A DNA stretch of 64,000 bases from Candidatus Saccharimonadota bacterium (GTDB taxonomy: Bacteria > Patescibacteriota > Saccharimonadia > Saccharimonadales > JAXHMH01). Below the pieces are notes generated by a model. The model was not told the DNA's origin. It did not search any database and saw only the letters and a program-made list of their open reading frames with translations. Location of the stretch: assembly GCA_034521515.1 (NCBI GenBank), contig JAXHMH010000002.1:280379-344378 (forward strand), given 5' to 3'. Made by a program: the position numbers and the translations under genes. Each line of letters starts with the position of its first letter. Position 1 is the first letter of the stretch. Below, in pieces: positions 5,582-58,381 of this stretch.

Positions 5582-6499
5582 TGTACTAACCTGTAGTAAG
5601 TAGTATTGAATCGCTTCATCAGCATCAATCGATGTTGACTTAAGCCGAATATCGAGTATGTGCAATTCGTGAACGAGTTGTTTTATCCGAGAAAACGGTA
5701 TTTTTTTTGCAATTGTAGTGGTTTTTTGTAGAACAAAAGGGCTGATTTTCGCCTCTTTAACAATTTCTGATTGAGACTTCTGACCAGCAGCCTTAATAAC
5801 CGACAAGACATGTAATTGCCAGGCAATCATCGGCACAATTGCCATCGGATCAACGCCTTGTGATCGTTGGTCTTCATACAGTTGCTGCACACGCTTTTTA
5901 TCGCCCGAGAATGCGGCGTCAAGTAATTGGAAAATAGTGCTTTGTGGCATCCTCTCACATAAAAGCTCAATTGACTGGCGAGTTACATTAGTATCATAAG
6001 TAATAAGCTTGCGTAGCTCAGCATCAAGAAGCTGCTGATTTGCACCAACGCGGTCAATTAAGTATCTAGCGTCTGAAGACTTAAGCGTAGCTTTACGTTC
6101 TTTAGCTGTTTTAACCAACCAGTCTGCAAGTTGGTAAGTGTCTAGTTCGTTATACTCCTGATAGCTCGTCAATTTCTTTAAGTTTTTAAAGTAGCTCGAT
6201 CGCTTATCAAGTTTAGGCTCAATAATAAGTACGTCGTTGCTGTCTGGAATAATATCTAGCAACTGCTCAAGTTTTTCGGTAAACTCTTTCTGAGCACTGG
6301 GCTTATGTAGCACAATCAGTCTCTTGTCGGCCAAAAAAGGCAGCGCTTGAACCGCTTCCACAATGCGCTGATAACTAGCCTCTTCTCCGTCAACTCGCTC
6401 CAAAGCAATGTCGCCATACTTAGCCAAAAAGGCGTCGGTTTGCCGGCTAAGCTCTTGCTGTAGCAAAAAAGTATTCGACCCAGTTAACGTAGTAATCAT
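5579..6499 (-). CDS. holA: DNA polymerase III subunit delta
   Basis: The protein is about 306 aa and starts MITTLTGSNTFLLQQELSR. Size and layout fit the delta subunit. The ORF extends to 6529, but the internal Met at 6499 is the likelier start. Confidence 0.75.
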   Translation of the reverse strand: MITTLTGSNTFLLQQELSRQTDAFLAKYGDIALERVDGEEASYQRIVEAVQALPFLADKRLIVLHKPSAQKEFTEKLEQLLDIIPDSNDVLIIEPKLDKRSSYFKNLKKLTSYQEYNELDTYQLADWLVKTAKERKATLKSSDARYLIDRVGANQQLLDAELRKLITYDTNVTRQSIELLCERMPQSTIFQLLDAAFSGDKKRVQQLYEDQRSQGVDPMAIVPMIAWQLHVLSVIKAAGQKSQSEIVKEAKISPFVLQKTTTIAKKIPFSRIKQLVHELHILDIRLKSTSIDADEAIQYYLLQVST

Positions 6500-6590
6500 G
6501 CAGCTAGCTCCTGTTGGCATTTTAGGCATACGTGGGTTCCACCCCAGTAGTAAACTCCTCCTGAGTTACTACGAGGCAAGCGCCCAGCAA

Positions 6591-7640
6591 CTACTCTTTT
6601 TGGCATTTTGTACATATGTGCGTTCCTCTTCCAGCAACTCTTATTTTCTGAATGAATATACCCGGATGACGTGGGCATTGTTGCCCTTCGCGCCTAAATA
6701 CTCGCGCAAAACTGAGATAACTACCGCGCTTTCCCTCGGCGCTGACATAATCTTTATCAGTGCTGCCGCCTTTTTCTATAGCCAGCTCCAGCACATAGCG
6801 CAGTTCTTGAAATAATGTGTTCAGCTTGGCTGCAGGCACATTCTTGACCAGCGTTTTTGGATTAATTTTTGCCCCCCAAAGCGACTCGTCGGCGTAAATA
6901 TTGCCTACTCCGGCAAGAACCGTCTGGTCTAATATTGCTGCTTTTATGTTGGTGTTCTTACGCCGCTGCAAACGTTCTATAAATTGATCGGCAGTAAAAC
7001 TAGTTTCTAGCGGTTCTGGCCCAACTTTTTTCATAAAATCAATGTTAGGAACTTCAATTGTTGGGATAAGTTTGACCCACCCAAACTTGCGTTGGTCATT
7101 AAAGAAAAGATGCGCACCACACTGCTGTGCTTTTTGGCCAAGCCAAAAATCTTGCCAGTGTTCTTGACCTACTGCGGTGTCAACTGCTCCAGTACTCAGG
7201 CGCCGTACGTCATGTACGACTTCTTCCGTGCTTCGCAGTTTCCTTACATTAGACTCAAGTGCATCATCTCTTCCTTGCAGACAGAGTATTACCCTTGTTG
7301 ATTTATCCGGCAGTCTATCAACTAAGCTACTGTTAGGGTGTCCGGCACCAAACCGTTCCTCTTGACGCTTGACGCTTGACGCTTGACGCTTGACGTACAC
7401 CATCTGGCCGGTCATTTTCAAGTGACATACTAGTGAATACTGGCTATCCAGCTCAATCAATAAGACCTTAGCCCGACGCTTCACAGCCGTCACGCAAGCG
7501 CCAATTAAAAACTGCTCAACATCTGACTCGGCGTTCGGAAACGACTTAGCCCAATCATGCCAAACCGCAGCCACTCGTTTTCCAACAATTAGCTCTGATA
7601 ACCCACGCCTGACGGTCTCAACTTCAGGCAACTCTGGCAT
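6591..7640 (-). CDS. mutM: formamidopyrimidine-DNA glycosylase (Fpg/MutM) with a large internal insertion
   Basis: MPELPEVETVRRGL is the catalytic N-terminus (Pro2, Glu3). A C-terminal zinc-finger-like CPRH...CTKC is present. At 349 aa it exceeds the usual ~270-280 aa. Confidence 0.85.
   Translation of the reverse strand: MPELPEVETVRRGLSELIVGKRVAAVWHDWAKSFPNAESDVEQFLIGACVTAVKRRAKVLLIELDSQYSLVCHLKMTGQMVYVKRQASSVKRQEERFGAGHPNSSLVDRLPDKSTRVILCLQGRDDALESNVRKLRSTEEVVHDVRRLSTGAVDTAVGQEHWQDFWLGQKAQQCGAHLFFNDQRKFGWVKLIPTIEVPNIDFMKKVGPEPLETSFTADQFIERLQRRKNTNIKAAILDQTVLAGVGNIYADESLWGAKINPKTLVKNVPAAKLNTLFQELRYVLELAIEKGGSTDKDYVSAEGKRGSYLSFARVFRREGQQCPRHPGIFIQKIRVAGRGTHICTKCQKE
7363..7397. repeat. heptanucleotide tandem repeat (TTGACGC x4 plus one imperfect copy) inside mutM
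   Basis: Read directly from the sequence: ttgacgc ttgacgc ttgacgc ttgacgc ttgacgt. It encodes YVKRQASSVKRQ on the minus strand. Confidence 0.95.
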
Positions 7641-8979: not shown

Positions 8980-9582
8980 CTATCTGATGCCAAGACCGCT
9001 GGTAAGATCTCGGTAATCCGTAATCTGTGCCTCAAAGAGTTTCCGTACAGTACTCATGTCGCCACCGAAGCTTCCGTCTCTACGGGAACAAGATGTCGCC
9101 CACAATCTAGATACCTCATCGCCTTCTTCTTCAATTTCCATAATAAACCGGCGTCCAAAAGGACACATCCCACGTTCGTCATCGCTACGAGCTACCTGCT
9201 CCTCCGTATAACCGGCTTTGTCTAGAGCGTATAAGAACGCCTCGAACGCCGCCTGGTTATTTGGATAAGTTTGTCTGTTAACAACCGACCCTGTGTAACC
9301 ACTAAGCTGTTCGACAGTTCGTCGACCCTTAGTAACACTAATACGCACCGCGTTAAACTCATCTTGACCAACAATATTACCTTGCACCGTATAGCGCACA
9401 GTTGCTGAGGTATCAACATAATCAGTCACGTCAACTTGCTCGACTGGTATATCGGCACTGGGAGTCATTAACCTAACCGCAATCAATACAACGATTACGA
9501 TTACAGCAATTATTGCTCCCAATAGCGCCAATCCATACCTGTTCATAAGCATTATTATAACACGCTTATAGCTATTTTTCAA
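8980..9582 (-). CDS. membrane-anchored hypothetical protein
   Basis: N-terminal hydrophobic helix LALLGAIIAVIVIVVLIAV followed by a soluble domain. The start codon is uncertain (Met1, Met11 or Met13). Confidence 0.5.
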   Translation of the reverse strand: MKNSYKRVIIMLMNRYGLALLGAIIAVIVIVVLIAVRLMTPSADIPVEQVDVTDYVDTSATVRYTVQGNIVGQDEFNAVRISVTKGRRTVEQLSGYTGSVVNRQTYPNNQAAFEAFLYALDKAGYTEEQVARSDDERGMCPFGRRFIMEIEEEGDEVSRLWATSCSRRDGSFGGDMSTVRKLFEAQITDYRDLTSGLGIR

Positions 9583-10049
9583 TAGTTTCTACCCTTAAAT
9601 GTCACAAACATTCGTTATAAATTAACAATCGACGCCTACCTTAGTGGTAAACGCCGATTGTAAGCGGGTGTGACGGTGTAAGAATCCTATAAAACGTGTT
9701 TTACTCTCGCGGGGACAAGATTACGTAAAACAGCGATTTATAGTTGAGTTTTGGCCTGTCGTTCCCTAGCACACATCACCCTGCTGCAATTGAGTAAGAA
9801 GGGAGTTAGATCGGTTACGCCACTTGCTCGGTTATCACATAGGCGTCCATCTAATAGTGATAACGTCAACGCACCCTAACTCAATTGTGCCCACATTATA
9901 GTACTTTTTGTAATTTATGTCAATGCTTGAGCAGCGTTTACTTAAGCAGTTCCGTAAACTCTGCGGGATACTTATGACTTAGGCGTGTGACTGCCGCCTT
10001 CGCAAACCGGACACCAAAATCAATAATCTCTTTTTCTAGTACCTGCATA

Positions 10050-12712
10050 TTATAGTTCGCCCCAGTTTTTGCCGGTTACTACGTCTACATCTAGTTTTAC
10101 AGGTAAGGTGTGAATGCTTTCCATAGTGGTTTTTAGCATGTCGGCCATGCCTTCCGCCTCTGATTCCGGACATTCAATCAGGATACTGTCGTGGATTTGC
10201 AGCAGCTGCTTGCATGGCGTCCCTTCCAGCTTTTTCTGCACTTCTATCATGGCCATTTTCATCAAATCTGCCTCGGTACCTTGTATCGGCATATTAATGG
10301 CAGCGCGTTCAGCTGCTTGGCGCACCGCAAAATTACTAGAGTGAATATCCGGCATTGGGCGACGGCGACCAAACAGTGTCTCCACATAGCCGTCTTCACG
10401 AGCCTTTTCTTTAAGATGATTCATGTACTCCAAAAGTGGTTTGCGTAGCTCGAAATATTTTTCGATAAAGTGCTGGGCGGCATCGCGCGTCATACCCGTA
10501 GCAATACTTAACCCATGTGGGCTCATGCCATAAAGTACACCAAAATTAATCACTTTAGCGTCACGGCGCATGCTCTTGGTCACTTCATCCGGTTGACGAT
10601 TGTACACTTGGGCGGCGGTAGCGGTATGAATATCGGCACCACCATTAAACATCTCGATTAGCTCGGTGTCGTTTGCCAGATATGCTGCCAAGCGGAGTTC
10701 AAACTGCGAGTAGTCAGCACTGATAAGTACCTTGCCTTTGCCGGCCACAAAAGCAGTGCGAATTCTACGGCCGAGATCTGTGCGAGTTGGTATATTTTGT
10801 AAATTAGGGTCGGTGCTGGATAATCGGCCAGTCTGAGCAATTGTCAGGTTAAACGTGGTATGCAAACGCGAGTTCTCGTCAACCATTTCTGGCAAGGTAT
10901 CAACATATGTATTTTTAAGCTTGGTGACCTCACGATAGTGAGTAATTAAATCAATTATTTCATGCTGTCCACGTAGTTTATCTAACTCACTGGCAGCAGT
11001 TGAGTAACTGGTTTTTCCTTTTTTAATACCTTGAGTTGGCAACTTCAGTTTATTGAACAAAATTTCACTCAATTGTGCCGGGCTACCGATGTTAAACTCT
11101 TCGTCAGCATATCCATAAATCTGCTGCTGCAAATCGCTTATCATGTCATCCAGCTCGTCATTCATCTCTTTTAGGTATTTTGTATCTAGCTCAATACCCT
11201 CGTATTCCATGGCTGCAAGCACCGGAATTACTGGCCATTCTATATCGTGCGCAAGTTTTTTAACTTTTGGCAGACTTTCAAGATCTTTGGCTTGCTGTTT
11301 ATATAACTCATTTATAATCGACAGCACTTCACCGCTACGAGTCACCAAATCTTCGTTAGGCATCTCTTCTAGTGATGAGCCTTCGTAGCCCAGGTCAGCA
11401 CTGGCCAGTTCGGTAAGTGTTTGTTCTCTTCTTAAGCTATTAATCAAAAAGGCACCGACCAGTACATCATGGCCAACATTATGCAGTTGTACTCCAATCG
11501 AATAACAAGCCTTGATAAATGACTTAACATCATAGCCAACCAGCTTCATTGCCGGTAATAAAGCTGCCAAAACAGTCTTGAGCTTATCTGCCGACACCTT
11601 ATCTACGTCAATAACGTACACTGTCTTTCCATCAAAACTAAGTAGCAAGAATTTTGGGTCACGGCCGTGCTTACCAGCGCATCGAGCGTGCACCAGAACA
11701 CTTTCTGACTCAATCCCAGCTATTTTATCTAGAGCCTTGTCTGACTGAATCACAATATGTTTCAAGGGCTTGTTATTCGCATCAGACAAATCAACTTCAT
11801 GGTGTTCTAACACCTGCATAGCTTCAGGTAATTGCCTTACCAAAGTGCGAAACTCAAATTTTTGGAGTGATTCACGTATCTTGTGCGGATCGCAGTTTTT
11901 TACGTCTAAGTTCTTTAAATCAAGCTTGATAGGCGCATCCGTCCAGAGCGCTCCGATTTTTTTGCTCAAATATGCAAGATCTTTACCAGCTACTAATTTT
12001 TTGCGCACACTTTCTTTAATCAGGTCGATGTTTTCATAAACTCCGTCTAGAGTTTTATGATCCTGGAGCAAAGCAACGGCTGTTTTTTCACCAATTCCCG
12101 GAACACCTGGAATATTATCCGAACTATCGCCTTTGAGTGCTTTTAGATCCAAAAATTGTTCCGGCTCTAACCCATATTTCGCCGTGAAGCTTTTTGGACT
12201 GTATAGCTCAATGTTACTTAAGCCTTTTTTAAGCGCAAACACGTGCACGTGCGGATCGATTATTTGAAGCATATCCAGATCAGACGTTACCAACATTGTT
12301 TCGATGTCCTTTTGTTGTAGCTTGAACCGCTGAAGCTGCCCATAATATCGTCCGCCTCATAATCATCTAGCTCATATAGCGGCCAGCCAAAGGCCTGCAA
12401 TAACTCCTGTAATAATGGGATTTGTTCATAAAAATCTGGTGGTGGTGGTTTGCGGCCAGCTTTATATTCGGGGTATATCTCGACACGTTTACGTATATTA
12501 GTTTTGGGCTTATCCCACGCCACACAAACATAGTCTGGCTTAAGCCGCTTGATTACTTCTAGTGCCATAACCGCAAAACCAAAAACCCCGCCAGTTGGCG
12601 TACCATCTTTTGTGCTCAAATACGGCATCGCATAATAACCACGATAAAAAACACTCTTGCCATCTATAATGGCGAGTTTTTTCTTCCTAGTATTCACCGC
12701 CGACTCACTCAT
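10050..12712 (-). pseudogene. polA: DNA polymerase I, split into two ORFs by a frame break inside the 5'-nuclease domain
   Basis: ORF 12287-12712 carries the 5'-nuclease N-terminal half (ending EADDIMGS). ORF 10050-12296 continues with LVTSDLDMLQ, the H3TH motif GIGEKTA and polymerase motifs DYSQFELR and RRDAKVINFGVLYG. The frames join if one A is added to the AAAA run at 12310-12313. Confidence 0.7.
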
Positions 12713-28730: not shown

Positions 28731-29375
28731 GTGGCCATAATTGATAATGTTTTAGACATACCTAGAGATCTTATTCGCTCTCTTATGCGAAGAGTGGCTA
28801 GCTGGCTTCATGCCGTTAGTGGCGGTAGGTTAAGTCCTAACCTAGTAACGTACACCGGGCTAATTGCCCACTTGCCAATCGCCTGGCTTATATCCCAAGG
28901 TTACTTTGGATATGCGGCTTTTGGTTTAGTTTTTTTTGGTCTGTTTGACACGCTCGATGGCGAACTGGCACGCCTGCAAAACAAAGCCAGCAATGCTGGT
29001 ATGTTGCTAGATGCCACCACTGACCGCATGAAAGAAACCATCCTATACGCTGGTGTTGCCTACGTGTTTGTTTTGAGCGGACAGCCATACTACGCAGTTT
29101 GGGCTGTGACTGCTGTAGGCGGTAGTATATTGGTTAGCTACGTCAAAGCAAAAGGCGAAACCGCCGTAAAAGACCTGAAACTAACACCGAACCAAATTAA
29201 CCGGTTATTTTCTGATGGACTTATGAGATTTGAGGTTCGTATGGCCTTACTGGTTGTTGCGCTACTTCTAAACTACCTGGCGGCAGCAATCGTTATTATC
29301 ACGTTGCTGACTTGGGTAACAGCGTTGGGGAGACTTTTCAAAATTAGCCGAAAGCTGACCGCTCATGAAGATTGA
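28731..29375 (+). CDS. CDP-alcohol phosphatidyltransferase
   Basis: DTLDGELARLQNKASNAGMLLDATTDRMKE matches D-G-x2-A-R-x8-G-x3-D-x3-D. Multi-pass membrane protein with a GTG start. Confidence 0.8.
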   Translation: MAIIDNVLDIPRDLIRSLMRRVASWLHAVSGGRLSPNLVTYTGLIAHLPIAWLISQGYFGYAAFGLVFFGLFDTLDGELARLQNKASNAGMLLDATTDRMKETILYAGVAYVFVLSGQPYYAVWAVTAVGGSILVSYVKAKGETAVKDLKLTPNQINRLFSDGLMRFEVRMALLVVALLLNYLAAAIVIITLLTWVTALGRLFKISRKLTAHED

Positions 29376-30015
29376 TCTCCACACTCATTCTATTGCTTCG
29401 CATGACGGCGGCATTTCCGCCGAACAGTATAAAAATTCTCTCCACAACGGACAGCTAGACTATATTGCCATTACTGACCATAATCGCATAGATTTTGCGA
29501 CACGACTTAATGATGAACTCGGCGAACAAATCATCGTTGGCGAAGAAATCATGACTACGGCTGGTGAAGTTATTGGTTTATATCTAAAAAAGCCAGTGTT
29601 GGCTGGACTATCACTGCGTCAAGCGGTTGATGAAATCAAAAAGCAAGACGGGCTGGTTTATATACCCCACCCGTTTGAAAATGCCCGCAAAGGTCTTCAG
29701 TCTGAAGCTCTCGAACAAATCTTGGATGACATTGATATTTTTGAAGTTTGTAATGGACGAGCCTTTTTGCAAAATCGTGGCCAACAAGCGGTGGTTTGGG
29801 CACGACTCAATCGTGTAGCTACAGCTGCCAGTAGTGACGCTCATGGGTCACGTGGTCTGGGCAAGACTGCCACACTCATAGATGAACCACCTGCCCGAGA
29901 TAACTTAGTCCAAGTTCTCGGCAGAGGAACGCTACTGACTGACCGACCAGGAATCCGAAGTCTCCTCTATCCGAAGTATCATCGTTTACGTAAAAAAATA
30001 GGACGAACGGAATGA
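29365..30015 (+). CDS. PHP-domain phosphoesterase
   Basis: MKIDLHTHSIASHDG, ITDHN and a later SDAHG metal-ligand motif. It overlaps the upstream gene by 11 nt, which suggests translational coupling. Confidence 0.75.
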   Translation: MKIDLHTHSIASHDGGISAEQYKNSLHNGQLDYIAITDHNRIDFATRLNDELGEQIIVGEEIMTTAGEVIGLYLKKPVLAGLSLRQAVDEIKKQDGLVYIPHPFENARKGLQSEALEQILDDIDIFEVCNGRAFLQNRGQQAVVWARLNRVATAASSDAHGSRGLGKTATLIDEPPARDNLVQVLGRGTLLTDRPGIRSLLYPKYHRLRKKIGRTE

Positions 30016-30100
30016 GAAATTTTACATTTTATATTTTACATTTCACAATTAATTATCATTGGGTACGCAAGGATAATTTCAAAATGGCAACTGCAAAATC

Positions 30101-30128
30101 AATGGCAAATGGCCAATGGCCAATGGCC
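30101..30128. repeat. heptanucleotide tandem repeat (AATGGCA, then AATGGCC x3) at the 5' end of the CarS-like gene
   Basis: Read directly from the sequence: aatggca aatggcc aatggcc aatggcc. Each unit contains an ATG. Confidence 0.9.
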
Positions 30129-30151
30129 AAATCTTACCTTGGAGGTGCAAG

Positions 30152-30676
30152 GTGAATGAATGGTGGGAAGCGTTTTGGTTCTTTTTACCAGCCGGCTTTG
30201 CTAATATGAGTCCGATTTTGGCCGCACGACTGCCTCTTTTAAGACACTGGGGCACACCGATTGACTTCGGTGTTAAGTACAAAGGCGAACGATTACTGGG
30301 TGCCAACAAAACCTGGCGTGGCTTATTGTTTGGCGTGCTGGTTGGAGTTTTAGTAGCACTATTTCAATATCGTTTCATTGCCAGCAGTGCAGAATCAGTC
30401 GGTTTTATTGTTTTAGTTGGGGCGGCGCTAGGCTTTGGCGCACTGGTTGGCGATGCGGTTGAAAGTTATTTTAAGCGTCGCAGCCAGGTACCGGCCGGTG
30501 AAAGCTGGTTTCCATTTGACCAAACCGACTATATCGTCGGTGGCGTATTATTCGCTAGCTTGTTTGTCTCACTTGGTCTAGCTGACATTCTCCGTATCAC
30601 ACTCATATATTTCGGACTGCACCTAATGATGAGTTATGTCGGCTACCTAACGGGAGTCAAAAAGCGCCCTATCTAG
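30152..30676 (+). CDS. CDP-archaeol synthase-like protein (CarS/DUF46 family)
   Basis: FLPAGFANMSP, GANKTWRG, GDAVESYFKRR and FDQTDY match the CarS pattern as I recall it. The GTG at 30152 follows GGAGG by 6 nt. The ORF itself opens at 30116, inside the heptamer repeat. Confidence 0.65.
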   Translation: MNEWWEAFWFFLPAGFANMSPILAARLPLLRHWGTPIDFGVKYKGERLLGANKTWRGLLFGVLVGVLVALFQYRFIASSAESVGFIVLVGAALGFGALVGDAVESYFKRRSQVPAGESWFPFDQTDYIVGGVLFASLFVSLGLADILRITLIYFGLHLMMSYVGYLTGVKKRPI

Positions 30677-31446
30677 TGTTCTGACCGAGGTCTGCTCCAA
30701 GTGATATCAGCTCTGTCCGCTCGCACGTAACCTTCTTTTGACAACGCTTCGCATAGCCGTTTGGCGCCAACCTGTTTAAACATACCCTCGGTTTGCGAGG
30801 GCATTACCCTAAGAGCCTCACACTTAGTCCGCGCGATATTCTCGGGCAACTGTAAGAACATGTCGCAATCTTTTGCCTTAACAAGATTAGGCTCTTCTAA
30901 GTTGAAGTAGATGTCAAATTGCTCATCCAACTCTTTAAAATAACGTTCGTATTGTTCTTTGAGATCTACCGTAAAATATACTGTTGCTGACGGGCAATAC
31001 TGCTCAGCAGCTTGGAGCGCCCAGCGCGAAACACTCACGTGATCCATATGCCCTGTGCCGCCGCTTGGCGGAAAAGTAATAATACTATCCGGCTGATAAA
31101 TTTTTAATAGCTCACCGATCTTACTGATTGCTTCATGGTGCGGCACGTCTTGACAGGCACCGTCTTTATATCCTAGCCAGTGGTGATGCTTAACACCGAT
31201 TACCTTCATCGCTGCGTTCATCTCAGATTCACGTACAGCGTGAAGTTTGTCGGCTGGCCATTTAATCTCATCCTGCACGCCAGCCTCGCCTCGCGTTGCA
31301 GTTATACAGGCGACTGATTGCTCATTGGCTGTTGCAATAGACATTAACCCGGCAGATGTGAAAGATTCATCATCAGGATGCGCCCACACACCAACAATTG
31401 TGCCGAGATTTGCAACGCGTTGTCTAATATCTGACATACCGGTCAC
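30673..31446 (-). CDS. PIG-L/LmbE family deacetylase
   Basis: VGVWAHPDDESF signature plus a later HMDH motif. Confidence 0.8.
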   Translation of the reverse strand: MTGMSDIRQRVANLGTIVGVWAHPDDESFTSAGLMSIATANEQSVACITATRGEAGVQDEIKWPADKLHAVRESEMNAAMKVIGVKHHHWLGYKDGACQDVPHHEAISKIGELLKIYQPDSIITFPPSGGTGHMDHVSVSRWALQAAEQYCPSATVYFTVDLKEQYERYFKELDEQFDIYFNLEEPNLVKAKDCDMFLQLPENIARTKCEALRVMPSQTEGMFKQVGAKRLCEALSKEGYVRADRADITWSRPRSEH

Positions 31447-32617: not shown

Positions 32618-33136
32618 ATGTTTGGTGACGATAAACAAAAAAATGATGAGCAATCGCAGGATATGAGCACAATGGCGCTGCCTCCACAGCAGCAACCGGA
32701 ATCTCCTGACAGCTCTGAAGATAGCAATGGGCAAACACCAACAGATTCGAACCAATCAGATAATTCGACTCCGCCAGCCGATCAACCAAAAAAATCTGAT
32801 GACAAAAAAATCGATGATATACAAATGACTGCCCCAGAACCCGTAGCTGACACAAACACTCCCCCACAAGCCTCTCATGACGATGACGAAACAGGCCTGC
32901 TGGACATCAAAAAAGAAGCTTTATCACAACTCGGACCATTAGTTGGGCACCTAGATCAGTCGCCGGAAGAAAAGTTCCGCACCACTATGATGATGATTCA
33001 GGCGACCGATGATCAAAGCATGGTCAAAGACGCGTATGATGCCGCCCAGGCAATATCTGATGACAAAGCTCGCGCCCAGGCACTCCTGGATGTTATCAAC
33101 GAAATCAACTACTTCACCCAAAAAGATAGTAACTAG
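32618..33136 (+). CDS. hypothetical acidic protein
   Basis: 172-aa ORF with a low-complexity D/E/P/Q N-terminal half and a helical C-terminus. No family recognised. Confidence 0.45.
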   Translation: MFGDDKQKNDEQSQDMSTMALPPQQQPESPDSSEDSNGQTPTDSNQSDNSTPPADQPKKSDDKKIDDIQMTAPEPVADTNTPPQASHDDDETGLLDIKKEALSQLGPLVGHLDQSPEEKFRTTMMMIQATDDQSMVKDAYDAAQAISDDKARAQALLDVINEINYFTQKDSN

Positions 33137-33207
33137 TAGACAGAAACTAGCGGGTAAACACTCCTGTAAAATGCTAGTTTCTAGTTGCTAATTCCTGATT
33201 ACCGCAA

Positions 33208-33651
33208 TCAAAGATTGCTTGAAGGGCCGGTGCTCGGTAACGCACTCGGGCCAGTTGTTGGCGTTGTGGTCGGTGTGGATTCTGATTGCGTTGCATCGTC
33301 CTGATCAGCGTCCGTATCGTTATCATTGTCGTCGCTCTCGTCAACATCATCGCCTGGCAAACGAACCGGTTCATCGGTCGAACGCGGCGCGTTATCAACA
33401 CTACCGTCGTCCTGAACTTCTTGCTCCATCTCTGTCTCGGTTGTTGTGTCGTTATCAAAAACCGCGCGGTATGCCCAACGCCCACCAAGAAAAATTCCTA
33501 GTGCAATCAGGAGTGTTGCAAGCAAAGTAACGACCGCCAATAGCCATGCCATGCCAGTTTTTTCACGTCGTTGTGCTTGATAATACTCCTGCGCTTCATC
33601 AGGCAGAGGTTGCTGATCTTGTTTGGTTCGCCTAAAAGGTAGTCGTGCCAT
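33208..33651 (-). CDS. membrane-anchored acidic hypothetical protein
   Basis: A transmembrane helix (WLLAVVTLLATLLIALGIFLGG) followed by a D/E/T-rich tail. The overlapping ORFs in other frames are rejected. Confidence 0.5.
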   Translation of the reverse strand: MARLPFRRTKQDQQPLPDEAQEYYQAQRREKTGMAWLLAVVTLLATLLIALGIFLGGRWAYRAVFDNDTTTETEMEQEVQDDGSVDNAPRSTDEPVRLPGDDVDESDDNDNDTDADQDDATQSESTPTTTPTTGPSALPSTGPSSNL

Positions 33652-44257: not shown

Positions 44258-45115
44258 TCAGTTGTCAAACTCTAGGGCAGAACGTACTCGTTCTGAACTC
44301 TCATCGGGACGGTAATCGTCAAACCACAACACCTTCCAGCCAATGCGTTGTGCAGCCATAATATTAGCTCGCGAATCATCGACCAACAGTATTTCCTCTG
44401 GTGAAACTGCCGCTTTAGTGGTAGCTATCGCAAAAATCTGCTCTTCTGGCTTGATACTCCCGACCTCTGATGAATCAACAATCGCATCGTAATCCAGCTT
44501 GGGCAATAAACCATTCTCTAACATTGATGCTATCAACCCCGGCATGATATTACTCAACAGACCAACACGGTAGTGTTTAGCTACCCACTCAGCCAGTTCA
44601 TGCATTTCCTGAATTGGTTCGATTGCTTCCAGATAATAGTCCCGCCAATCGAACTCGGCCAACCTAAAACGCCCGCCTAGTGTCTCGTTGAACTCTTCCA
44701 TAGACAGCTCGCCGCGACATACCGCATCATTAAAATGCCAGAATGTAGTTTCAATAATATCTGCCGAGAGGCCGCTCGCCTCTGATACTTTGCTGAACGC
44801 CCGATGATAAAACCTAACCAGACAACCGTTGACATCAAAATAAACAAACCGAACACCGCTTTTTGAACGTTTCTTAGCGTCTACAGGCTCTTGTACGTCA
44901 GCAGGCGGTAAATCACCCACCAAACCGCTTAAAGTCACTCCAAGCACTGCCGCAATGCTCTGAATCGTAAAGATTGAGGGTGCCTTGATCGCTCCGCGCT
45001 CAATCTTAGCTAGTGTCGAGTAGCTGAGATCGGCTTTTTGGCACAGTTCTTGCTGCGTAATACCCGCCTTTTTGCGCGCAGTTTGCAGTGTTTTTCCAAG
45101 GCTTATCTCATCCAT
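44258..45115 (-). CDS. XRE-family HTH domain fused to a HAD-like hydrolase domain
   Basis: N-terminus LGKTLQTARKKAGITQQELCQKADLSYSTLAKIERG. The C-terminal half carries FDVNGCLV, LLSN and LVDDS HAD motifs. The likely start is MDEISLG at 45115. Confidence 0.65.
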   Translation of the reverse strand: MDEISLGKTLQTARKKAGITQQELCQKADLSYSTLAKIERGAIKAPSIFTIQSIAAVLGVTLSGLVGDLPPADVQEPVDAKKRSKSGVRFVYFDVNGCLVRFYHRAFSKVSEASGLSADIIETTFWHFNDAVCRGELSMEEFNETLGGRFRLAEFDWRDYYLEAIEPIQEMHELAEWVAKHYRVGLLSNIMPGLIASMLENGLLPKLDYDAIVDSSEVGSIKPEEQIFAIATTKAAVSPEEILLVDDSRANIMAAQRIGWKVLWFDDYRPDESSERVRSALEFDN

Positions 45116-45279
45116 GCCGCGTCTCACTTGTGCGAATCGATACAACACCACCACTGTCACACTGTTTCATCGTTTACATTCCACCCTTAACTACTATTCC
45201 TGCCAAAACTGCAGGTTGATAGCTCCATAATACTGATTACGGCGCAAAAAAGCTAGCAAAACTAGCCATTTAGTACTAA

Positions 45280-48282: not shown

Positions 48283-50016
48283 TTAAGAGCTATCAATAGG
48301 CTGCTTCTTAGTAAAACGCTCCTTTAGGTTAGCGATGTCATAACGCCATTCCCATACTCCATAGCCTGCAGCTAACGCCACCATAAAGCCGGCAAACCAC
48401 CAACTCAGCGGTGTCGGACGCGCCACCGTTGTAACATCACGCACGTTCATCTCCGGCAGTTCGGTCATCGCTGCTGCCACATTCCGGCAGCGGTTAGTTT
48501 CTGGATTGCGTTCTTGCCCAGGACTACACGGCTTTAGCCCGGACGTTTGATTAATATTACGGCAACGGTTAGTTTCTGGGTTTCTTTCCTGGTGAGGCTT
48601 ACAAGGTACCAGTTGGCGGGTACTACTTGTTACAGAACGGCATCTGTTTGTTTCTGGATTGCGTTCTTGCCCAGGACGGCATGGCACTAGGGAAGAGCCA
48701 GAGTCAATCTTCCGGCAACGGTTCGTCTCTGGATTGCGTTCTTGATCCGAATCACACGGCTTGAGCTCAGAGGTGCTGCTCACGATATTGCGACAACGAC
48801 CGGTATCTGGATTGCGCTCCTTACCTTCCTTGCAATCGGCGTATTCTTGATATTTATTCTCTTGACCCAGGGTTAGTTCATAAGTCTGCCGCCAGTCATC
48901 ATCACCAAACCAAGCCCATGAGGTTTCCGGCCGTAAATCAGAATATTTCTGGGCATCAACCTCTTCTTGTCCGTCAGATGACAATACATATACTGTGCCG
49001 GTAGTTGTTTTGGTAAGTGTCAGTTCCGTGTTTGCAATCTGTATCGTCAAATAATCATGCGGCTCTACAACCTCATCGGCAAACACATAGGTGTTATCGT
49101 TGCGATTGGTTTGCAACTGGCAACCATCCAACTCAGCTTCCTGGTTGGTCAGATTATGCAGCTCTATGAACTGTTCGTCTAAGTTAGCTCCAATTTCAGA
49201 TATCACTACACCCTCGCAAATGTTTATGTCGTCTTCTGGTGCCGTTTCTTGATCAGTATCGAGCTCTTTATCAACCTTTTGGCTTAAATCATCGTCGGGT
49301 TCATCCTCAGGCTTTTCACCGGACTGTTCTTCAGGTTCTTCCTCATCGTCTGGCTCAGGATCAGGCTCAGGCAAGGGACATTCCAGACCAGCTCCGGGCA
49401 TAGGTATCTCGTTGATGGTAAAATCAAGCGCGTTATTACCGGTATCAACTATCAGGCCATCCTGGCCAAAACACCGTATAAGGGACTGGTCTGGCTGCGG
49501 CGCCCCAGCTGGGCTCGTAAGGTAATGCTCGGGGTCACCGTAGCCAACCATATCTACAAGCTCCCCGTCGTTATCAAACAGCCTGATAGTCCCATCATGG
49601 TAGTTTAAGTAACCTGAGGCTGTCCGAGAATCGAGTAGGAAATTCGCCTCCGGCAGATAGCTTTCATAGCTCACCACAAAAAACCCATCAGGCTGTATTT
49701 CGTAACCTACATCTGCATCAGAATCATCCTCAAACAAGACTATAGAACGGGTTGTTGTGCCCTTTTCATTTGCAAACTCTAGCTCCCACCCATCAAGCGA
49801 TACGGTCTCATTGTGCGGGTTATATAGCTCTATAAACTCGTGAGTTCCAACTACGCTACCAGCATCTTCTCCGTCATCTACTGTGCCTCTGTTTTGAAAC
49901 TCACTAATCAAAATCAATGTTTCCGTTGCCGGGGAGTCCTCTGCAACGGCACCGGCAGCCCAAAATAACGGCAAAACAAATCCCAAAACCAGTGCCCATA
50001 CCCACCGTTTGTTCAT
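48283..50016 (-). CDS. surface protein with two lamin-tail-like domains, five Cys-bracketed repeats and a C-terminal membrane anchor
   Basis: Signal peptide. LTD-like segments (HEFIELYNPHNETVSLDGWELEF and EQFIELHNLTNQEAELDGCQLQ). Five copies of C-x4-(Q/K)ERNP(E/D)T(N/G)RCR. A terminal transmembrane helix. Confidence 0.7.
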   Translation of the reverse strand: MNKRWVWALVLGFVLPLFWAAGAVAEDSPATETLILISEFQNRGTVDDGEDAGSVVGTHEFIELYNPHNETVSLDGWELEFANEKGTTTRSIVLFEDDSDADVGYEIQPDGFFVVSYESYLPEANFLLDSRTASGYLNYHDGTIRLFDNDGELVDMVGYGDPEHYLTSPAGAPQPDQSLIRCFGQDGLIVDTGNNALDFTINEIPMPGAGLECPLPEPDPEPDDEEEPEEQSGEKPEDEPDDDLSQKVDKELDTDQETAPEDDINICEGVVISEIGANLDEQFIELHNLTNQEAELDGCQLQTNRNDNTYVFADEVVEPHDYLTIQIANTELTLTKTTTGTVYVLSSDGQEEVDAQKYSDLRPETSWAWFGDDDWRQTYELTLGQENKYQEYADCKEGKERNPDTGRCRNIVSSTSELKPCDSDQERNPETNRCRKIDSGSSLVPCRPGQERNPETNRCRSVTSSTRQLVPCKPHQERNPETNRCRNINQTSGLKPCSPGQERNPETNRCRNVAAAMTELPEMNVRDVTTVARPTPLSWWFAGFMVALAAGYGVWEWRYDIANLKERFTKKQPIDSS

Positions 50017-51521: not shown

Positions 51522-52268
51522 TTAAAAATCTCCAACAACTGGGAGTATTTGACCTGGGCAAGTTTGTAGCACTCGTTTTATCGCGTTATGCTCATTACGA
51601 GTTACCCATAGATCATACTCCAGCTTTATAGCAATTTGGCGAGCAACATATTGGCACCTATATCTTTCGTGGGGCAGCCAGTCGGCGGCATCTTTGTCGC
51701 CTTTCTCCATATTGGACGCACCATCAACCGCTATTAAAATGAGCGGGTCGTTATAGAACTCTTGTCTGCGTTTGTAATCAAGCTGCTGAGCTCCTTTCTG
51801 CCAAGCGTCCGAGACCGCCACTATATGCTCGATATGGATATCTCCGCTTGTTTCACGACCACGCTGGAAGGGGATTGTCTGGGCAGTAAACGGATCATCC
51901 GGCAAAACCCCCGACAAAACGGTACAATTATCATCATCCAACACAACTTCCTGTAGGTCGCGCTGCAAGATACGATTGCGCATATCACAACCAGCAACTT
52001 CCGCCCAGCCTGGGCTAAACTTATCACGTGCATAACCATCTAGCGATACACGATCTTTAACCGCCAGCTTTCCAAGCGATTCTATGGCTGACACGCGTAG
52101 CTCTTGGGGAACGCTTTGGACAGACAAGGTCTGCGGCGATTCAACAACTTGTTGGGGTTGAAGATAATCAAGCAAGGCTACGATTAAAAACCCCACAGCT
52201 AATAACAAAACTACCGTAAACCGTCGCCGTCTATGCGGCGAGGCTCGTCCCACCAACTTCATGCCCAA
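51522..52268 (-). CDS. membrane-anchored extracellular nuclease, DUF1524/HNH-type
   Basis: N-terminal transmembrane helix, then IHIEHIVAVSDAWQKG...NDPLILIAVDGASNMEKGDKDAADWLP, typical of the DUF1524 nuclease fold. Confidence 0.65.
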   Translation of the reverse strand: MGMKLVGRASPHRRRRFTVVLLLAVGFLIVALLDYLQPQQVVESPQTLSVQSVPQELRVSAIESLGKLAVKDRVSLDGYARDKFSPGWAEVAGCDMRNRILQRDLQEVVLDDDNCTVLSGVLPDDPFTAQTIPFQRGRETSGDIHIEHIVAVSDAWQKGAQQLDYKRRQEFYNDPLILIAVDGASNMEKGDKDAADWLPHERYRCQYVARQIAIKLEYDLWVTRNEHNAIKRVLQTCPGQILPVVGDF

Positions 52269-55091: not shown

Positions 55092-56252
55092 TTACTCCCC
55101 AGCCAGAGCAACATCGCCGAGCTGGTTGACGTAGCCTATCTCTAAAACGCGCTTACACAACACTATGTATTGATAGAATGTTTCGGTAGTTTCTGGTGGC
55201 AAATTATGTATGTGGCTGCGCACATGGGAAAAGAATGTGTCTGAGATAAAATCACCATATTGCTTACGAATCTCATTACCGTCATGAAAGTGCATGAAAG
55301 CCTCGTGCAGCTTATCTAAGGTGTTTTTATCCTGTATGCCGGCTAGCTCAAACAACGTTCGCAGAAAGGCTTCATTTGGCTGGTTAAACGGATTGAGCGT
55401 AAAAACGCCGTACTCTGGATTGTGGCCAGCATCGGTATCCCAATCGCCAAGCTCATCAGCAATCCGCACCACCACGTTACATATCTGGATCAACTCCACC
55501 ATTATCGGGTCATCATAAACTTCCTGCAGGGAAGGTAGCGAAGAATCGTGCTGCCGATAGATTGCGTAAAGTGAGGATGAGACGCTTGGGAACCCCGCAT
55601 CCACCGTAATAAGCTGAGCTAACCTCTTGCCGTGCTCGTCCATAAAAGCTTGTTTATCAACTGCTCCTTGATAATCTTCACTTAAGTTACGCACATATAC
55701 TTCGTTGAGTAGCACCTGTTCACTAAAACAAGCCAAAACAAACGGGTAATCTTCTGGTAGTGCCAGCTCATCAATTTTGGTCTCTATGTTTTTTAGAGAG
55801 GCTAAACGTGCCTGAACTTTATCGGCTATATCTTTTGGAACAGGAATGTCTTGACCGGCCAACAGCTGCACAGCGTATGACATAATGTCGTCGCCTCTAT
55901 CCATTGTTTGATCTCCCCAATACATCAGCCCTATTGCTACCGATATGGCCTGAAGACGTGTAGTGTCGTCCAGTTCACCAGCAACCAAGGCAGGACAAAA
56001 GCCTACGGTTTTTGGCGCAATCTGCCCGACAAGGTCAGCTACTTCTTTTGCTGAAAATTCTGGCACGCCTTGAGCTATAAATTGCTGTAACTCATTACTA
56101 AACCCACTAGAAATAGTGGCAATTTGGTGTTTTATGTCGTCCATTTTAGCCATCGATTCTGAATCAAAGGAGTCACCGAAAATCGGGCTTTTGTAGGTTT
56201 CTTCTAGTAACTTCTGTAAAATTTTGGCAGACATTAAATATAGAACTTTCAA
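55092..56252 (-). CDS. terpenoid-synthase-fold protein (candidate class I terpene synthase or head-to-head prenyltransferase)
   Basis: Asp-rich segment YWGDQTMDRGDDIMSY and a second acidic segment RIADELGDWDTD about 150 aa later. Predicted to be all-helical. It lies in a cluster with idi and a polyprenyl synthase, separated from them by a small opposite-strand gene (56302-56709). Confidence 0.35.
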   Translation of the reverse strand: MKVLYLMSAKILQKLLEETYKSPIFGDSFDSESMAKMDDIKHQIATISSGFSNELQQFIAQGVPEFSAKEVADLVGQIAPKTVGFCPALVAGELDDTTRLQAISVAIGLMYWGDQTMDRGDDIMSYAVQLLAGQDIPVPKDIADKVQARLASLKNIETKIDELALPEDYPFVLACFSEQVLLNEVYVRNLSEDYQGAVDKQAFMDEHGKRLAQLITVDAGFPSVSSSLYAIYRQHDSSLPSLQEVYDDPIMVELIQICNVVVRIADELGDWDTDAGHNPEYGVFTLNPFNQPNEAFLRTLFELAGIQDKNTLDKLHEAFMHFHDGNEIRKQYGDFISDTFFSHVRSHIHNLPPETTETFYQYIVLCKRVLEIGYVNQLGDVALAGE

Positions 56253-56301: not shown

Positions 56302-56709
56302 ATGGGTGCGAAAAATACTGACAAAAACAAAACTGTAGATAAAGGTGACCACGGCTACTCAGTCGAACATAAAGGTGATTACATTCACCTAAAGACATGG
56401 GGGCGTCTCCATCTAGAAGATTTAAGTGAACCGGCTGAAACCGCACTTAAACTTGCTAAAAAAGAGAAGGCCAAAATGTTGATAGATGATATCCGTGAGG
56501 TTCACTCCCCATTTGTTGACCTGCAAGTTCAAGCCAAAGGTGTCAGTGTTTTGTGGAAACTAAAAGAATTCCACAAGGTCGCGATTGTTTTTAACGAAGG
56601 TGAGCTAGAGAAATTGTTTTTCTCCTCATTAGAAGCACTGCGACTGGGCGGTAATTTCAAAGGCTTTGATAACGTTGACGATGCAGTTGCCTGGCTAAAA
56701 GAAGATTAA
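56302..56709 (+). CDS. STAS/SpoIIAA-like small protein, hypothetical
   Basis: 135 aa. The layout KMLIDDIREV...KVAIVF... resembles the SpoIIAA-like fold families. Weak call. Confidence 0.3.
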   Translation: MGAKNTDKNKTVDKGDHGYSVEHKGDYIHLKTWGRLHLEDLSEPAETALKLAKKEKAKMLIDDIREVHSPFVDLQVQAKGVSVLWKLKEFHKVAIVFNEGELEKLFFSSLEALRLGGNFKGFDNVDDAVAWLKED

Positions 56710-57278
56710 ATAGCCGCTTCATTTAGTTGCTTGAGCCATGTGTTGAAAGCAGACGAATTCTCCAGGTGCTGGAGTTGATCTTTAGCCCAGTAAGAATATT
56801 CAGCTGCTCTTTCACGTAGCTCTGTTTTGTAAACTTCCCAATTGAGCCACTTATAATTAGCAACTTCCTCAAAGTTCAAGGCTGGGTCGGTGGTGGTTCG
56901 GGACACATAAATCGGACAAAACTCGTGTTCTATCACGCCATTCATAGCCGGAGTTTTATAGATATAATCTGGCACAACGCAGGTGAGGTCTGTAAGATCC
57001 GTTAAGCCGAGCTCATGTGCTGCCCGGCGGCTAATAGCGTCTTGTTGCGGCTCTCCCGGAGCAGGGTGGCCACAGACGCTGTTTGTGAGCACACCCGGCC
57101 AGACCTTTTTACTCAACGCGCGCTGCGTGACCAGAAATTGGCCTTTATCGTTAAAAATGTAGCAGGAAAATGCCAGGTGTAGCCGCGTCTTCATGTGGTG
57201 GCTAGCCAGTTTGGGACCAGTTTCGCCAGTAGGCTGACCGGACTCGTCTACAAATACAATACGTTCTTCTTCGGTCAT
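56706..57278 (-). CDS. idi: isopentenyl-diphosphate delta-isomerase, type 1 (Nudix)
   Basis: LHLAFSCYIFN, TNSVCGHP (catalytic Cys) and EHEFCPIY (catalytic Glu). Confidence 0.8.
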   Translation of the reverse strand: MTEEERIVFVDESGQPTGETGPKLASHHMKTRLHLAFSCYIFNDKGQFLVTQRALSKKVWPGVLTNSVCGHPAPGEPQQDAISRRAAHELGLTDLTDLTCVVPDYIYKTPAMNGVIEHEFCPIYVSRTTTDPALNFEEVANYKWLNWEVYKTELRERAAEYSYWAKDQLQHLENSSAFNTWLKQLNEAAI

Positions 57279-58381
57279 CGGTCGCGTTTCTCCAGAAACT
57301 CCACAAAACCGCGCAAAAAACGGCGCAAATCTTCCGGAATATCAATTTCATCCAACTGCTGTAAACACTCTGTTTTATAGTGTGACATCAACGCTTCTGT
57401 CTGGGATAACCCACCACTACGGTCAACGATATCGCGCACCTGTTGGGCTTGCTCTTTGGTAATATCAGGCTTGCCAACCAACTCGTTAAGTACTTGCTTA
57501 TCTTCGGCCGTGGCGCTAGAGAAAGCTAACCACATCGGCAGCGTTTTTTTGCCTTGTGATATATCGCCATCATTAGATTTACCGGTGTCATCAGGCTTGC
57601 CAAACAACCCAATTATGTCATCGCCGGTCTGAAACAATAGACCAAGCGTATCGGCTAGTTTTTCTAAGCCGGCTGGCGGGGGAACACCAGCAACTCCGTA
57701 GCCAAATAACAGTGGTAATTTTATAGAATATTTTCCAGTCACCCAGGCCATAGAGGTTTCTATACGCCCTTGGCTTAACTCCTCTGAGTCAAGCGGCAGA
57801 TAGTCCATTAAGAACTGGTCGTACCAACCCCAAGCTACTTCTTCCGTGGCCTCAATCAGTAAGCTTATGAGCTCAAGCTTGTTAGCGTTTGTCAGATGAC
57901 TGTTTAATACAATCTTATATGACCCAGCTGCAAGCAGGTCGCCACCAATAATTGCTAATGAATTACCAAAATGCTCCTGATCTGCCTTTTTACGGCACAA
58001 TTTGGCCAGATTTGCATGAACAGTTGACGCATTATAACGAACATCATCTCGATCAATAATATCGTCGTGAGTTAATAGAAACTTATGGAACGCCTCCAGT
58101 GCGAGATGAGGGGCGATATCTGACTTACCGAAGCTTGAGGCGGTCACATAAGCTAAAGCTGGACGGAACCGCTTACCTCCCTCTGTAGCAAACCGGCATA
58201 TTTTATCTCTTAACACGTCTTGTTCAGGAAACGAAGTCGCCAAGTACTGCTTAAGCTTCATATTCTGTTCCAATTGAGACACAGCATTTTTGTAGGTTGC
58301 CCAAAAGTAGCCCTGGCCAGATACGTTTTTTTCAGACTTTGACACGTTGTTGTCTTTTTTGTTTTGTGGGCTGGTCTTCAT
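57275..58381 (-). CDS. polyprenyl diphosphate synthase (short-chain, GGPP/FPP-synthase-like)
   Basis: GGKRFRPAL, first Asp-rich motif HDDIIDRDD, and a second motif FQTGDDIIG in which Gly replaces the usual third Asp. Confidence 0.75.
   Translation of the reverse strand: MKTSPQNKKDNNVSKSEKNVSGQGYFWATYKNAVSQLEQNMKLKQYLATSFPEQDVLRDKICRFATEGGKRFRPALAYVTASSFGKSDIAPHLALEAFHKFLLTHDDIIDRDDVRYNASTVHANLAKLCRKKADQEHFGNSLAIIGGDLLAAGSYKIVLNSHLTNANKLELISLLIEATEEVAWGWYDQFLMDYLPLDSEELSQGRIETSMAWVTGKYSIKLPLLFGYGVAGVPPPAGLEKLADTLGLLFQTGDDIIGLFGKPDDTGKSNDGDISQGKKTLPMWLAFSSATAEDKQVLNELVGKPDITKEQAQQVRDIVDRSGGLSQTEALMSHYKTECLQQLDEIDIPEDLRRFLRGFVEFLEKRDR

Follow-up and report, generated by a model that had tools for sequence, protein, structure and literature searches.

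A CarS-family gene in a conserved Saccharimonadales operon and its possible part in placing polar head groups on glycerolipids

CarS is treated as the archaeal hallmark of the ‘lipid divide’, with CdsA as its bacterial counterpart. What, then, is the role of a CarS-like gene in a bacterium, where it lies in one cluster with genes for a CDP-alcohol phosphatidyltransferase and a PHP phosphoesterase? The question is raised by a stretch of 64,000 nucleotides (nt) from a Candidatus Saccharimonadota bacterium (assembly GCA_034521515.1, contig JAXHMH010000002.1, positions 280,379 to 344,378 of the forward strand), the whole of which is hereafter called the window. A first-pass annotation, made from the letters alone, had placed three co-directional open reading frames (ORFs) at 28731-30676 on the + strand, positions that we confirm, and had seen in them, together with two isoprenoid genes farther along, part of an archaeal-type isoprenoid-lipid pathway. 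Our analysis leads to a different reading, which we favour by a modest measure: a conserved operon of Saccharimonadales would equip glycerolipids of the acyl-tailed kind with a new polar head group, in a scheme of three steps. The locus is made up as follows.

28731..29375, + strand: gene 1, CDP-alcohol phosphatidyltransferase resembling phosphatidylinositol-phosphate (PIP) and archaetidylinositol-phosphate (AIP) synthases, 214 aa (PF01066, NCBIfam, PDB)
29365..30015, + strand: gene 2, PHP-family metal-dependent phosphoesterase, 216 aa, candidate head-group phosphatase (Pfam, metal ligands, fold)
30016..30151, + strand: spacer between the PHP gene and the CarS-like gene, AT-rich (read from the sequence)
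30152..30676, + strand: gene 3, CarS-family CTP:lipid-phosphate cytidylyltransferase, 174 aa from a GTG codon (Pfam, NCBIfam, fold)

The product of gene 3 is a CarS-family protein and not a CdsA, as follows from its Pfam scores, from its sole relative of solved structure and from the overlay of its model on that structure. It matched PF01864 (CarS-like) with 103.1 bits (E 2e-29; cut-off 22 bits), versus 34.8 bits for PF01148 (CTP_transf_1, the CdsA family), a match confined to the 62 residues 64-125. The possibility that it would score better to CdsA-type proteins did not materialize, since the CarS equivalog of NCBIfam, NF003114, gave 140.1 bits, narrowly below its cut-off of 148, while the CdsA model PRK11624 gave 20.7 bits against a cut-off of 385. 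The motifs by which the first-pass annotation had recognized CarS (PAxxAN, KTWRG, GDxxxSFxKRR and DQxD) are indeed present, save that the actual letters of the third are SYFKRR instead of ‘SFxKRR’, and PAGxAN, KTxRG, GDxxxSxxKR and DQxD are invariant among 22 homologues. When a profile of these 22 sequences was run against the PDB, the sole match was the CarS structure 5GUF (ApCarS; E 3.8e-20), with the motif blocks of the two proteins in register, and no CdsA was found at E≤1. The AlphaFold2 (AF2) model built from the same 22 sequences has five helices and a mean predicted local distance difference test (pLDDT) score of 89.6; in a Foldseek comparison it matched 5GUF with E 2.4e-6, template modelling (TM) scores of 0.71/0.82, a root-mean-square deviation of 2.1 Å and 29% identity, as opposed to TM scores of 0.44-0.49 and E above 0.3 for Thermotoga CdsA (TmCdsA). 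Neither the nine-helix fold of CdsA nor a full-length match to a CdsA model was seen.

Akin to ApCarS and AfCarS (AF1740), the protein thus belongs to PF01864, has a similar size and a predicted five-helix fold, and it shares with ApCarS the blocks PAxxAN, KTxxG, GDxxxSxxKRR and DQxD as well as a C-terminal LH...GLKK. It differs from archaeal CarS in its near miss of the equivalog cut-off, in its host, a member of the candidate phyla radiation (CPR) without visible glycerol-1-phosphate dehydrogenase (G1PDH), geranylgeranylglyceryl phosphate synthase (GGGPS) or digeranylgeranylglyceryl phosphate synthase (DGGGPS), in its operon partners, a transferase and a putative PHP phosphatase, and in its probable supply with acyl lipids rather than with digeranylgeranylglyceryl phosphate (DGGGP). 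With CdsA (TmCdsA 4Q2E/4Q2G; Escherichia coli) it has in common the CTP-transferase superfamily and the proposed role, the provision of CDP-lipid for all CDP-alcohol phosphatidyltransferases; it is smaller, with 174 aa, than the TmCdsA chains, of which 261-269 residues are modelled. The longest ORF for gene 3 on the ORF list spans 30116-30676 (186 aa), but the true start is probably the GTG at 30152, because a GGAGG ribosome-binding site precedes it in the spacer and the homologues are about 174 aa long. In a neighbour-joining tree of ApCarS and 150 cluster representatives without taxon labels, a Saccharibacteria clade stood beside many other clades at similar distance.

To what extent the three genes belong together can be read from their conservation. 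One genome per species was scanned for relatives of the CarS-like protein, which were found in at least 510 species representatives, and the best 80 loci, nearly all labelled Saccharibacteria or Saccharimonadales, were compared. In 70 of the 80 all three genes are present with unchanged order and strand, at median gaps of -4 nt, and the exceptions lie mostly at contig ends. The neighbourhood is conserved as well: the operon is preceded by ArgRS and a DUF1361 membrane protein, the latter missing in the window, and followed by a PIG-L deacetylase (half of the loci), PGI/PMI, two acidic hypothetical proteins and GroEL. These three genes, with 210, 215 and 186 aa and arranged alike, are also found in ‘T. 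rhizospherense’, a Saccharibacteria relative with a closed 1.45-Mb genome, on whose published gene table (Table S2 of PMC6031116, near-complete, with rows to at least 1.386 Mb of 1.45 Mb) we relied for genome-wide checks; there they are assigned to K17884, to COG0613/K07053 and, weakly, to K00981. The gene tables of the oral Saccharibacterium S. epibionticum hold no CarS entry and one PgsA-like transferase only, and the operon may on that account be a feature of less reduced, environmental lineages.

Gene 1 was correctly named a CDP-alcohol phosphatidyltransferase in the first pass, with 53.5 bits to PF01066 (CDP-OH_P_transf). It contains the CDP-alcohol phosphotransferase (CAPT) motif Dx2DGx2AR...Gx3Dx3D as FDTLDGELAR...GMLLDATTDR, in which D73, D76, G77, A80, G90, D94 and D98 are invariant in 24 homologues and the motif arginine, R81, is at least 90% conserved. 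Which phosphorylated alcohol the enzyme would accept is a harder question. The best NCBIfam models were those for AIP synthase (89.8 bits, cut-off 180) and PIP synthase (81.8 bits, cut-off 170), both below their equivalog cut-offs, and in the PDB the mycobacterial PIP synthases 6H53 and 6WM5 came first (profile E 9e-15), followed at lower rank by AF2299, the Renibacterium PIP synthase and a di-myo-inositol-phosphate-phosphate (DIPP) synthase, DIPPS (4MND). Inositol-1-phosphate is contacted in the mycobacterial synthases MtPis and MkPis by R94, S132, Y133, K135, R137, R152, R155 and R195 (review PMC9385802). R99, S136, Y137, K139, K141 and R201 of gene 1 align with R94, S132, Y133, K135, R137 and R195 of MtPis, K141 being a lysine in place of the arginine R137, and each is either invariant or conserved to at least 90%; the probable counterparts of R152 and R155 are R166 and R170, in a stretch that HMMER left unaligned. 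By sequence, gene 1 thus appears nearest to inositol-phosphate lipid synthases, akin to those of the phosphatidylinositol (PI) route of mycobacteria (PgsA1/PIP synthase) and Bacteroides (BT_1523, BT_1525), to which it is close and whose inositol-phosphate contacts it appears to keep.

The contact residues do not settle the acceptor, because basic residues at similar positions bind glycerol-3-phosphate (G3P) in the PgsA of Staphylococcus aureus (SaPgsA; review PMC9385802), and the same module could make phosphatidylglycerol (PG), with G3P as the substrate of the transferase and the PHP protein as phosphatidylglycerophosphate (PGP) phosphatase. Many gene 1 homologues are labelled PGP synthase by the Joint Genome Institute (JGI), and no inositol-phosphate synthase was present among the window ORFs scanned or in the ‘T. 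rhizospherense’ table. We nevertheless consider PG a doubtful product: no PgsA model appeared among the NCBIfam matches of gene 1 at E≤0.01, its profile did not find S. aureus PgsA in the PDB at E≤10, and in ‘T. rhizospherense’ the gene 1 orthologue has the KEGG number K17884, while the genome has a separate pgsA (K00995).

Gene 2, which overlaps gene 1 by 11 nt, had likewise been recognized as a PHP phosphoesterase, and this is borne out by its metal ligands and its fold. Pfam gave 24.6 bits for PHP_C, above the cut-off, and 23.4 bits for PHP, just below it; the PHP metal ligands H6, H8, D14, H39, E61, H102, D158 and H160 are invariant, and the protein ends in a conserved basic tail (LLYPKYHRLRKK). 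Its AF2 model (pLDDT 84.7) matched the PHP structures 7UG9, 3E38 and 2ANU with E values of 4e-10 to 1e-9, the fold relatives being RNase AM, TM0559 and BVU_3505, all of them PHP phosphoesterases; it shows no homology with phosphatases of the PgpA, PgpB or PgpC type. The further suggestion of the first-pass annotation, that the PHP protein removes the head-group phosphate, stands as far as position goes, as the gene lies between genes 1 and 3 in 70 of the 80 loci, while the fold search, with its generic PHP matches, pointed to no substrate. We therefore regard gene 2, from the place of its gene, as a candidate phosphatase for lipid-inositol-phosphate or lipid-glycerol-phosphate.

The spacer behind gene 2 is peculiar to this locus in so far as most relatives do without it, their PHP and CarS-like genes overlapping or abutting (median gap -4 nt). 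Ahead of the ribosome-binding site, it holds a promoter-like TTTACA-17-CACAAT at 30021-30049, which is a consensus match only, and short tandem AATGGCC/AATGGCA repeats at 30085-30135.

Beyond Saccharibacteria, too, CarS-like proteins are tied to transferases. When 1.84 billion cluster representatives were searched exhaustively with a profile, 3,015 clusters matched at E≤1e-3, 353 of them at E≤1e-30. Among the best 150 clusters there are three natural fusions (P0435, P0439 and P0501), in which a CDP-alcohol phosphatidyltransferase domain precedes the CarS domain; P0435, with PF01066 and PF01864, comes from a closed Candidatus Nomurabacteria genome. In further loci the CarS-like and transferase genes overlap (L087), follow each other in the order CarS, transferase, transferase (L089) or converge, next to a gene of the LtaS/EptA-type sulfatase family (L086). 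Together with the conservation of the operon, these fusions and overlaps suggest that the CarS-like enzyme feeds a CDP-activated lipid to the transferase, and they back the order of events proposed at the outset, by which a lipid would be activated, transferred and dephosphorylated.

In one more locus (L084, 6001-7495) the CarS-like gene is followed by pgpA, an arrangement that would also suit a PG module, and by a gene for a PTH2-type peptidyl-tRNA hydrolase, with TruD nearby. The pgpA gene points to a slot for a head-group phosphatase beside CarS-like genes, which in our operon the PHP protein would fill. In Bacteroides, the PgpA-family member BT_1525 is the only proven bacterial PIP phosphatase (PMC9246714), and there too the phosphatase gene is co-operonic. 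The present cluster departs from the mycobacterial and Bacteroides PI route in the family of its phosphatase (PHP here, PgpA there), in the lack of an inositol-1-phosphate synthase (MIPS) in the cluster and in the table of the relative, and in the archaeal-type CDP-lipid synthase of the same operon. The archaetidylinositol route of archaea (CarS, AIP synthase, AIP phosphatase) has the same three formal steps, and both KEGG and NCBIfam put gene 1 nearest to AIP synthase, but our host is bacterial and shows no ether-lipid core pathway; the PHP gene has no archaeal AIP phosphatase to be matched with, because that enzyme is unidentified (review PMC9385802). As PTH2 and TruD genes adjoin its CarS-like gene, L084 suggests an archaeal contig, possibly of the DPANN group. 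As an observation in its own right, the CarS sequences of CPR bacteria and of ultrasmall archaea may be closely related.

PgsA and cardiolipin synthase need CDP-lipid or its products. The ‘T. rhizospherense’ table lists both enzymes (pgsA as K00995), together with phospholipase D, two idi genes, one gene of the type of geranylgeranyl diphosphate (GGPP) synthase and undecaprenyl-dependent enzymes, yet the word ‘cytidylyltransferase’ occurs in it once only, at the CarS-like gene. On the strength of this single entry the CarS-like gene would be the sole candidate for a CDP-lipid synthase in that genome, in place of CdsA. Starr et al. (PMC6031116) interpreted this gene as a phosphatidate cytidylyltransferase that supplies the synthesis of PGP, cardiolipin and PI from scavenged diacylglycerol phosphate; they treated the genes of the operon as bacterial PI-pathway enzymes and did not remark on the CarS identity, the role of the PHP protein or the operon as such.

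In light of these observations we propose the following scheme. In the first step, the CarS-family membrane enzyme would use cytidine triphosphate (CTP) to convert a lipid phosphate of the phosphatidic acid type into CDP-lipid and, to judge from the complete genome of the relative, may do so as the only CDP-lipid synthase of the cell, standing in for the missing CdsA. In the second, the gene 1 enzyme would move the lipid-phosphate moiety to a phosphorylated alcohol, most likely 1L-myo-inositol-1-phosphate, which would give a lipid of the phosphatidylinositol-phosphate type. In the third, the PHP phosphoesterase, assigned by the position of its gene, would strip the head-group phosphate, in parallel to the PgpA-family phosphatases that elsewhere stand beside genes for CarS-like proteins or PIP synthases. 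As to the tails, fatty-acyl chains that the cell scavenges from the host or from neighbouring bacteria are most likely, and not isoprenoid ethers, because these bacteria appear to have no genes for fatty-acid or ether-lipid synthesis and because the CPR lipids that have been measured are acylglycerols: in a small-cell fraction enriched in CPR bacteria all of the 72 intact polar lipids were acylglycerols, and the authors concluded that CPR lipids are fatty-acid-based and obtained from other organisms (PMC7242380). Acyl tails are also favoured by a transferase fused to the catalytic domain of a diacylglycerol (DAG) kinase, whose gene lies divergently beside the operon in three divergent Saccharibacteria loci; among the other neighbours in divergent loci there were no lipid genes. 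The three genes, identified by domain matches, are the following.

L045, 1979-3670, - strand: transferase-DAG-kinase fusion
L058, 2646-4308, - strand: transferase-DAG-kinase fusion
L069, 2588-4201, - strand: transferase-DAG-kinase fusion

Several points weigh against this scheme. In vitro, archaeal CarS prefers the geranylgeranyl-ether substrate DGGGP over diacyl phosphatidic acid, and AfCarS fails to rescue an E. coli cdsA mutant (review PMC9385802). For acyl lipids to be accepted, the lipid groove would have to be altered. With MIPS missing from the scanned window ORFs and its KEGG number, K01858, from the ‘T. rhizospherense’ table, the proposed acceptor inositol-1-phosphate is left without a visible source. 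The same holds for phosphatidic acid, as that table has no acyltransferase (PlsC or PlsY) and no DAG kinase. The gene 2 protein, in the fold search, resembles only generic PHP phosphoesterases and RNase AM. Lastly, the genome-wide absence of CdsA and of ether-lipid genes comes from the published table of a relative and not from the genome of the window itself.

The preference of archaeal CarS would need no change if the CarS-like enzyme activated an isoprenoid or otherwise unusual lipid phosphate that did not arise by the archaeal route, being scavenged from archaeal partners or of a polyprenyl type. The surroundings of L084 suggest an archaeal genome and so an exchange of genes between ultrasmall archaea and CPR bacteria, and prenyl chemistry is encoded in the window. 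This substrate is nonetheless unlikely, in our judgement, since the known hosts of Saccharibacteria are Actinobacteria (bioRxiv 10.1101/2023.05.02.539146), the CPR lipids so far measured are of the acyl kind only (PMC7242380), and the partners of CarS-like genes are ordinary phospholipid enzymes, namely transferases, PgpA, a DAG-kinase domain and an LtaS-type protein.

Does the operon, then, form the head-group end of a real archaeal-type pathway, as the first-pass annotation had proposed? In that case CarS would activate unsaturated archaeol phosphate derived from GGPP, and the bacterium would have isoprenoid ether lipids. The CarS membership of gene 3 is strong (29% identity to ApCarS, a near-equivalog score and a shared fold), the archaeal AIP model fits gene 1 slightly better than its bacterial counterpart does (89.8 versus 81.8 bits), and the two isoprenoid genes that had been noted at 56.7-58.4 kb are both there.

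56706-57278, - strand: type-1 idi, isopentenyl diphosphate isomerase (214.9 bits, cut-off 127)
57275-58381, - strand: short-chain trans-prenyl synthase, 368 aa (family match), overlapping idi by 4 nt

The prenyl synthase has a phenylalanine at position -5 of its first Asp-rich motif, DDIID, which is compatible with C15-C20 products. Yet the genes that would have to make the ether-lipid core were not found: the annotation had itself noted that G1PDH, GGGPS and DGGGPS are not in the window, and we likewise saw no G1PDH, PcrB/GGGPS or UbiA/DGGGPS among the scanned genes of the 64-kb window, none up to 5 kb away from the operon in the 80 related loci, and no entry for K00096, K17104, K17105, UbiA or ‘glycerol-1-phosphate’ in the ‘T. 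rhizospherense’ table. A distance of 26 kb separates idi and the prenyl synthase gene from the operon; they do not occur in the 80 related loci and are as compatible with the synthesis of the carrier lipid undecaprenyl as with anything else; on these three grounds we discarded a functional link between them and the operon. Given in addition the acylglycerols of the CPR-enriched fractions (PMC7242380), the archaeal-type pathway is not supported and is, as we see it, very unlikely. An equally slim chance attaches to a broader form of the idea, in which Saccharibacteria and other CPR bacteria with the module handle archaeol-type lipids by CarS activation and inositol-type heads, with cores made by unrelated enzymes or taken from archaeal neighbours. 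Near idi there is also a 386-aa ORF (55092-56252, - strand) with no family match, whose Asp-rich motifs GDDIMSY and RIADELGDWDTD recall terpene synthases.

We give hardly any credence to a product outside the membrane lipids, for which the transferase and the PHP protein would produce a phosphodiester that is soluble or linked to the wall (for example a solute akin to di-inositol-phosphate or a polymer akin to teichoic acid), with the CarS-like gene as a mere neighbour: gene 1 does also resemble the DIPP synthase 4MND and AF2299, and DIPP requires a phosphatase step, but the DIPPS match is weaker than the PIP synthase match, no soluble inositol-phosphate cytidylyltransferase lies nearby, and the fusion or overlap of the transferase with an integral-membrane CarS-like enzyme in several lineages favours a CDP-lipid donor.

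A full-text search of the available literature found no work that links CarS to Saccharibacteria, CPR or Patescibacteria, although such proteins are already labelled ‘CDP-archaeol synthase’ by NCBI and JGI. What appears to be new is an archaeal-type candidate CDP-lipid synthase within a bacterial candidate head-group operon that includes a putative PHP phosphatase, and this CarS-family member is conserved in the operon in hundreds of Saccharibacteria species and occurs also in other CPR lineages. If the enzyme acts on fatty-acyl lipids, as we favour, it would show in nature how an enzyme of the archaeal type works for a bacterial membrane, and it would offer a ready system in which to study the tail specificity of CarS versus CdsA. 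The operon is also relevant to the remodelling of scavenged lipids by ultrasmall symbionts that have no fatty-acid synthesis, and its PHP gene is a candidate head-group phosphatase from a family so far unlinked to phospholipids, for a step still unassigned in archaea and mycobacteria. Were the archaeol-type reading true, a major bacterial radiation would have mixed or archaeal-type membrane lipids.

Downstream, the operon meets a convergent neighbour.

30673..31446, - strand: PIG-L/LmbE-family deacetylase, 257 aa (Pfam PIG-L, 103 bits)

This gene overlaps the stop codon of the CarS-like gene by 4 nt on the opposite strand and is found at the same position in 40 of the 80 related loci. Its best NCBIfam models were BshB2, Mca and MshB, none of which reached its cut-off. 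Its membership in the unit is uncertain, and so is a link through GlcNAc-PI or GlcNAc-inositol chemistry, which has to be set against the opposite strand, the presence in half of the loci and the closest resemblance to deacetylases of thiol pathways. A DinB/MDMPI_N (mycothiol-type) protein is encoded near the PIG-L gene in 10 loci (the stretch noted in L018 is 6231-6812), which may be a sign that low-molecular-weight thiols or GlcNAc-inositol are handled in these bacteria, whose hosts produce mycothiol. Farther along, at 32618-33651 of the window, are the two acidic, low-complexity hypothetical proteins of the conserved block (172 aa, + strand; 147 aa, - strand). They have no family match and, in more than 60 of the 80 Saccharimonadales loci, remain flanked by PGI/PMI and GroEL (at about 7400-8900 in L001-L080).

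Other features of the window were noted in passing. A cyclic-di-GMP-II riboswitch aptamer lies at 9800-9885 on the - strand (RF01786, 58.8 bits versus a gathering threshold of 53.5), and downstream of it is a 200-aa ORF with no family match (8980-9582, - strand). DNA polymerase I is encoded as two overlapping ORFs at 10050-12712 (- strand), of which 12287-12712 corresponds to the N-terminal 5'-3' exonuclease domain and 10050-12296 to the rest; this could reflect a frameshift, a sequencing error or a genuinely split gene. A protein with a GmrSD_C-type restriction endonuclease domain is encoded at 51522-52268, a 577-aa lamin-tail-domain protein next to comEC at 48283-50016 and an HTH-HAD hydrolase fusion at 44258-45160, all on the - strand.

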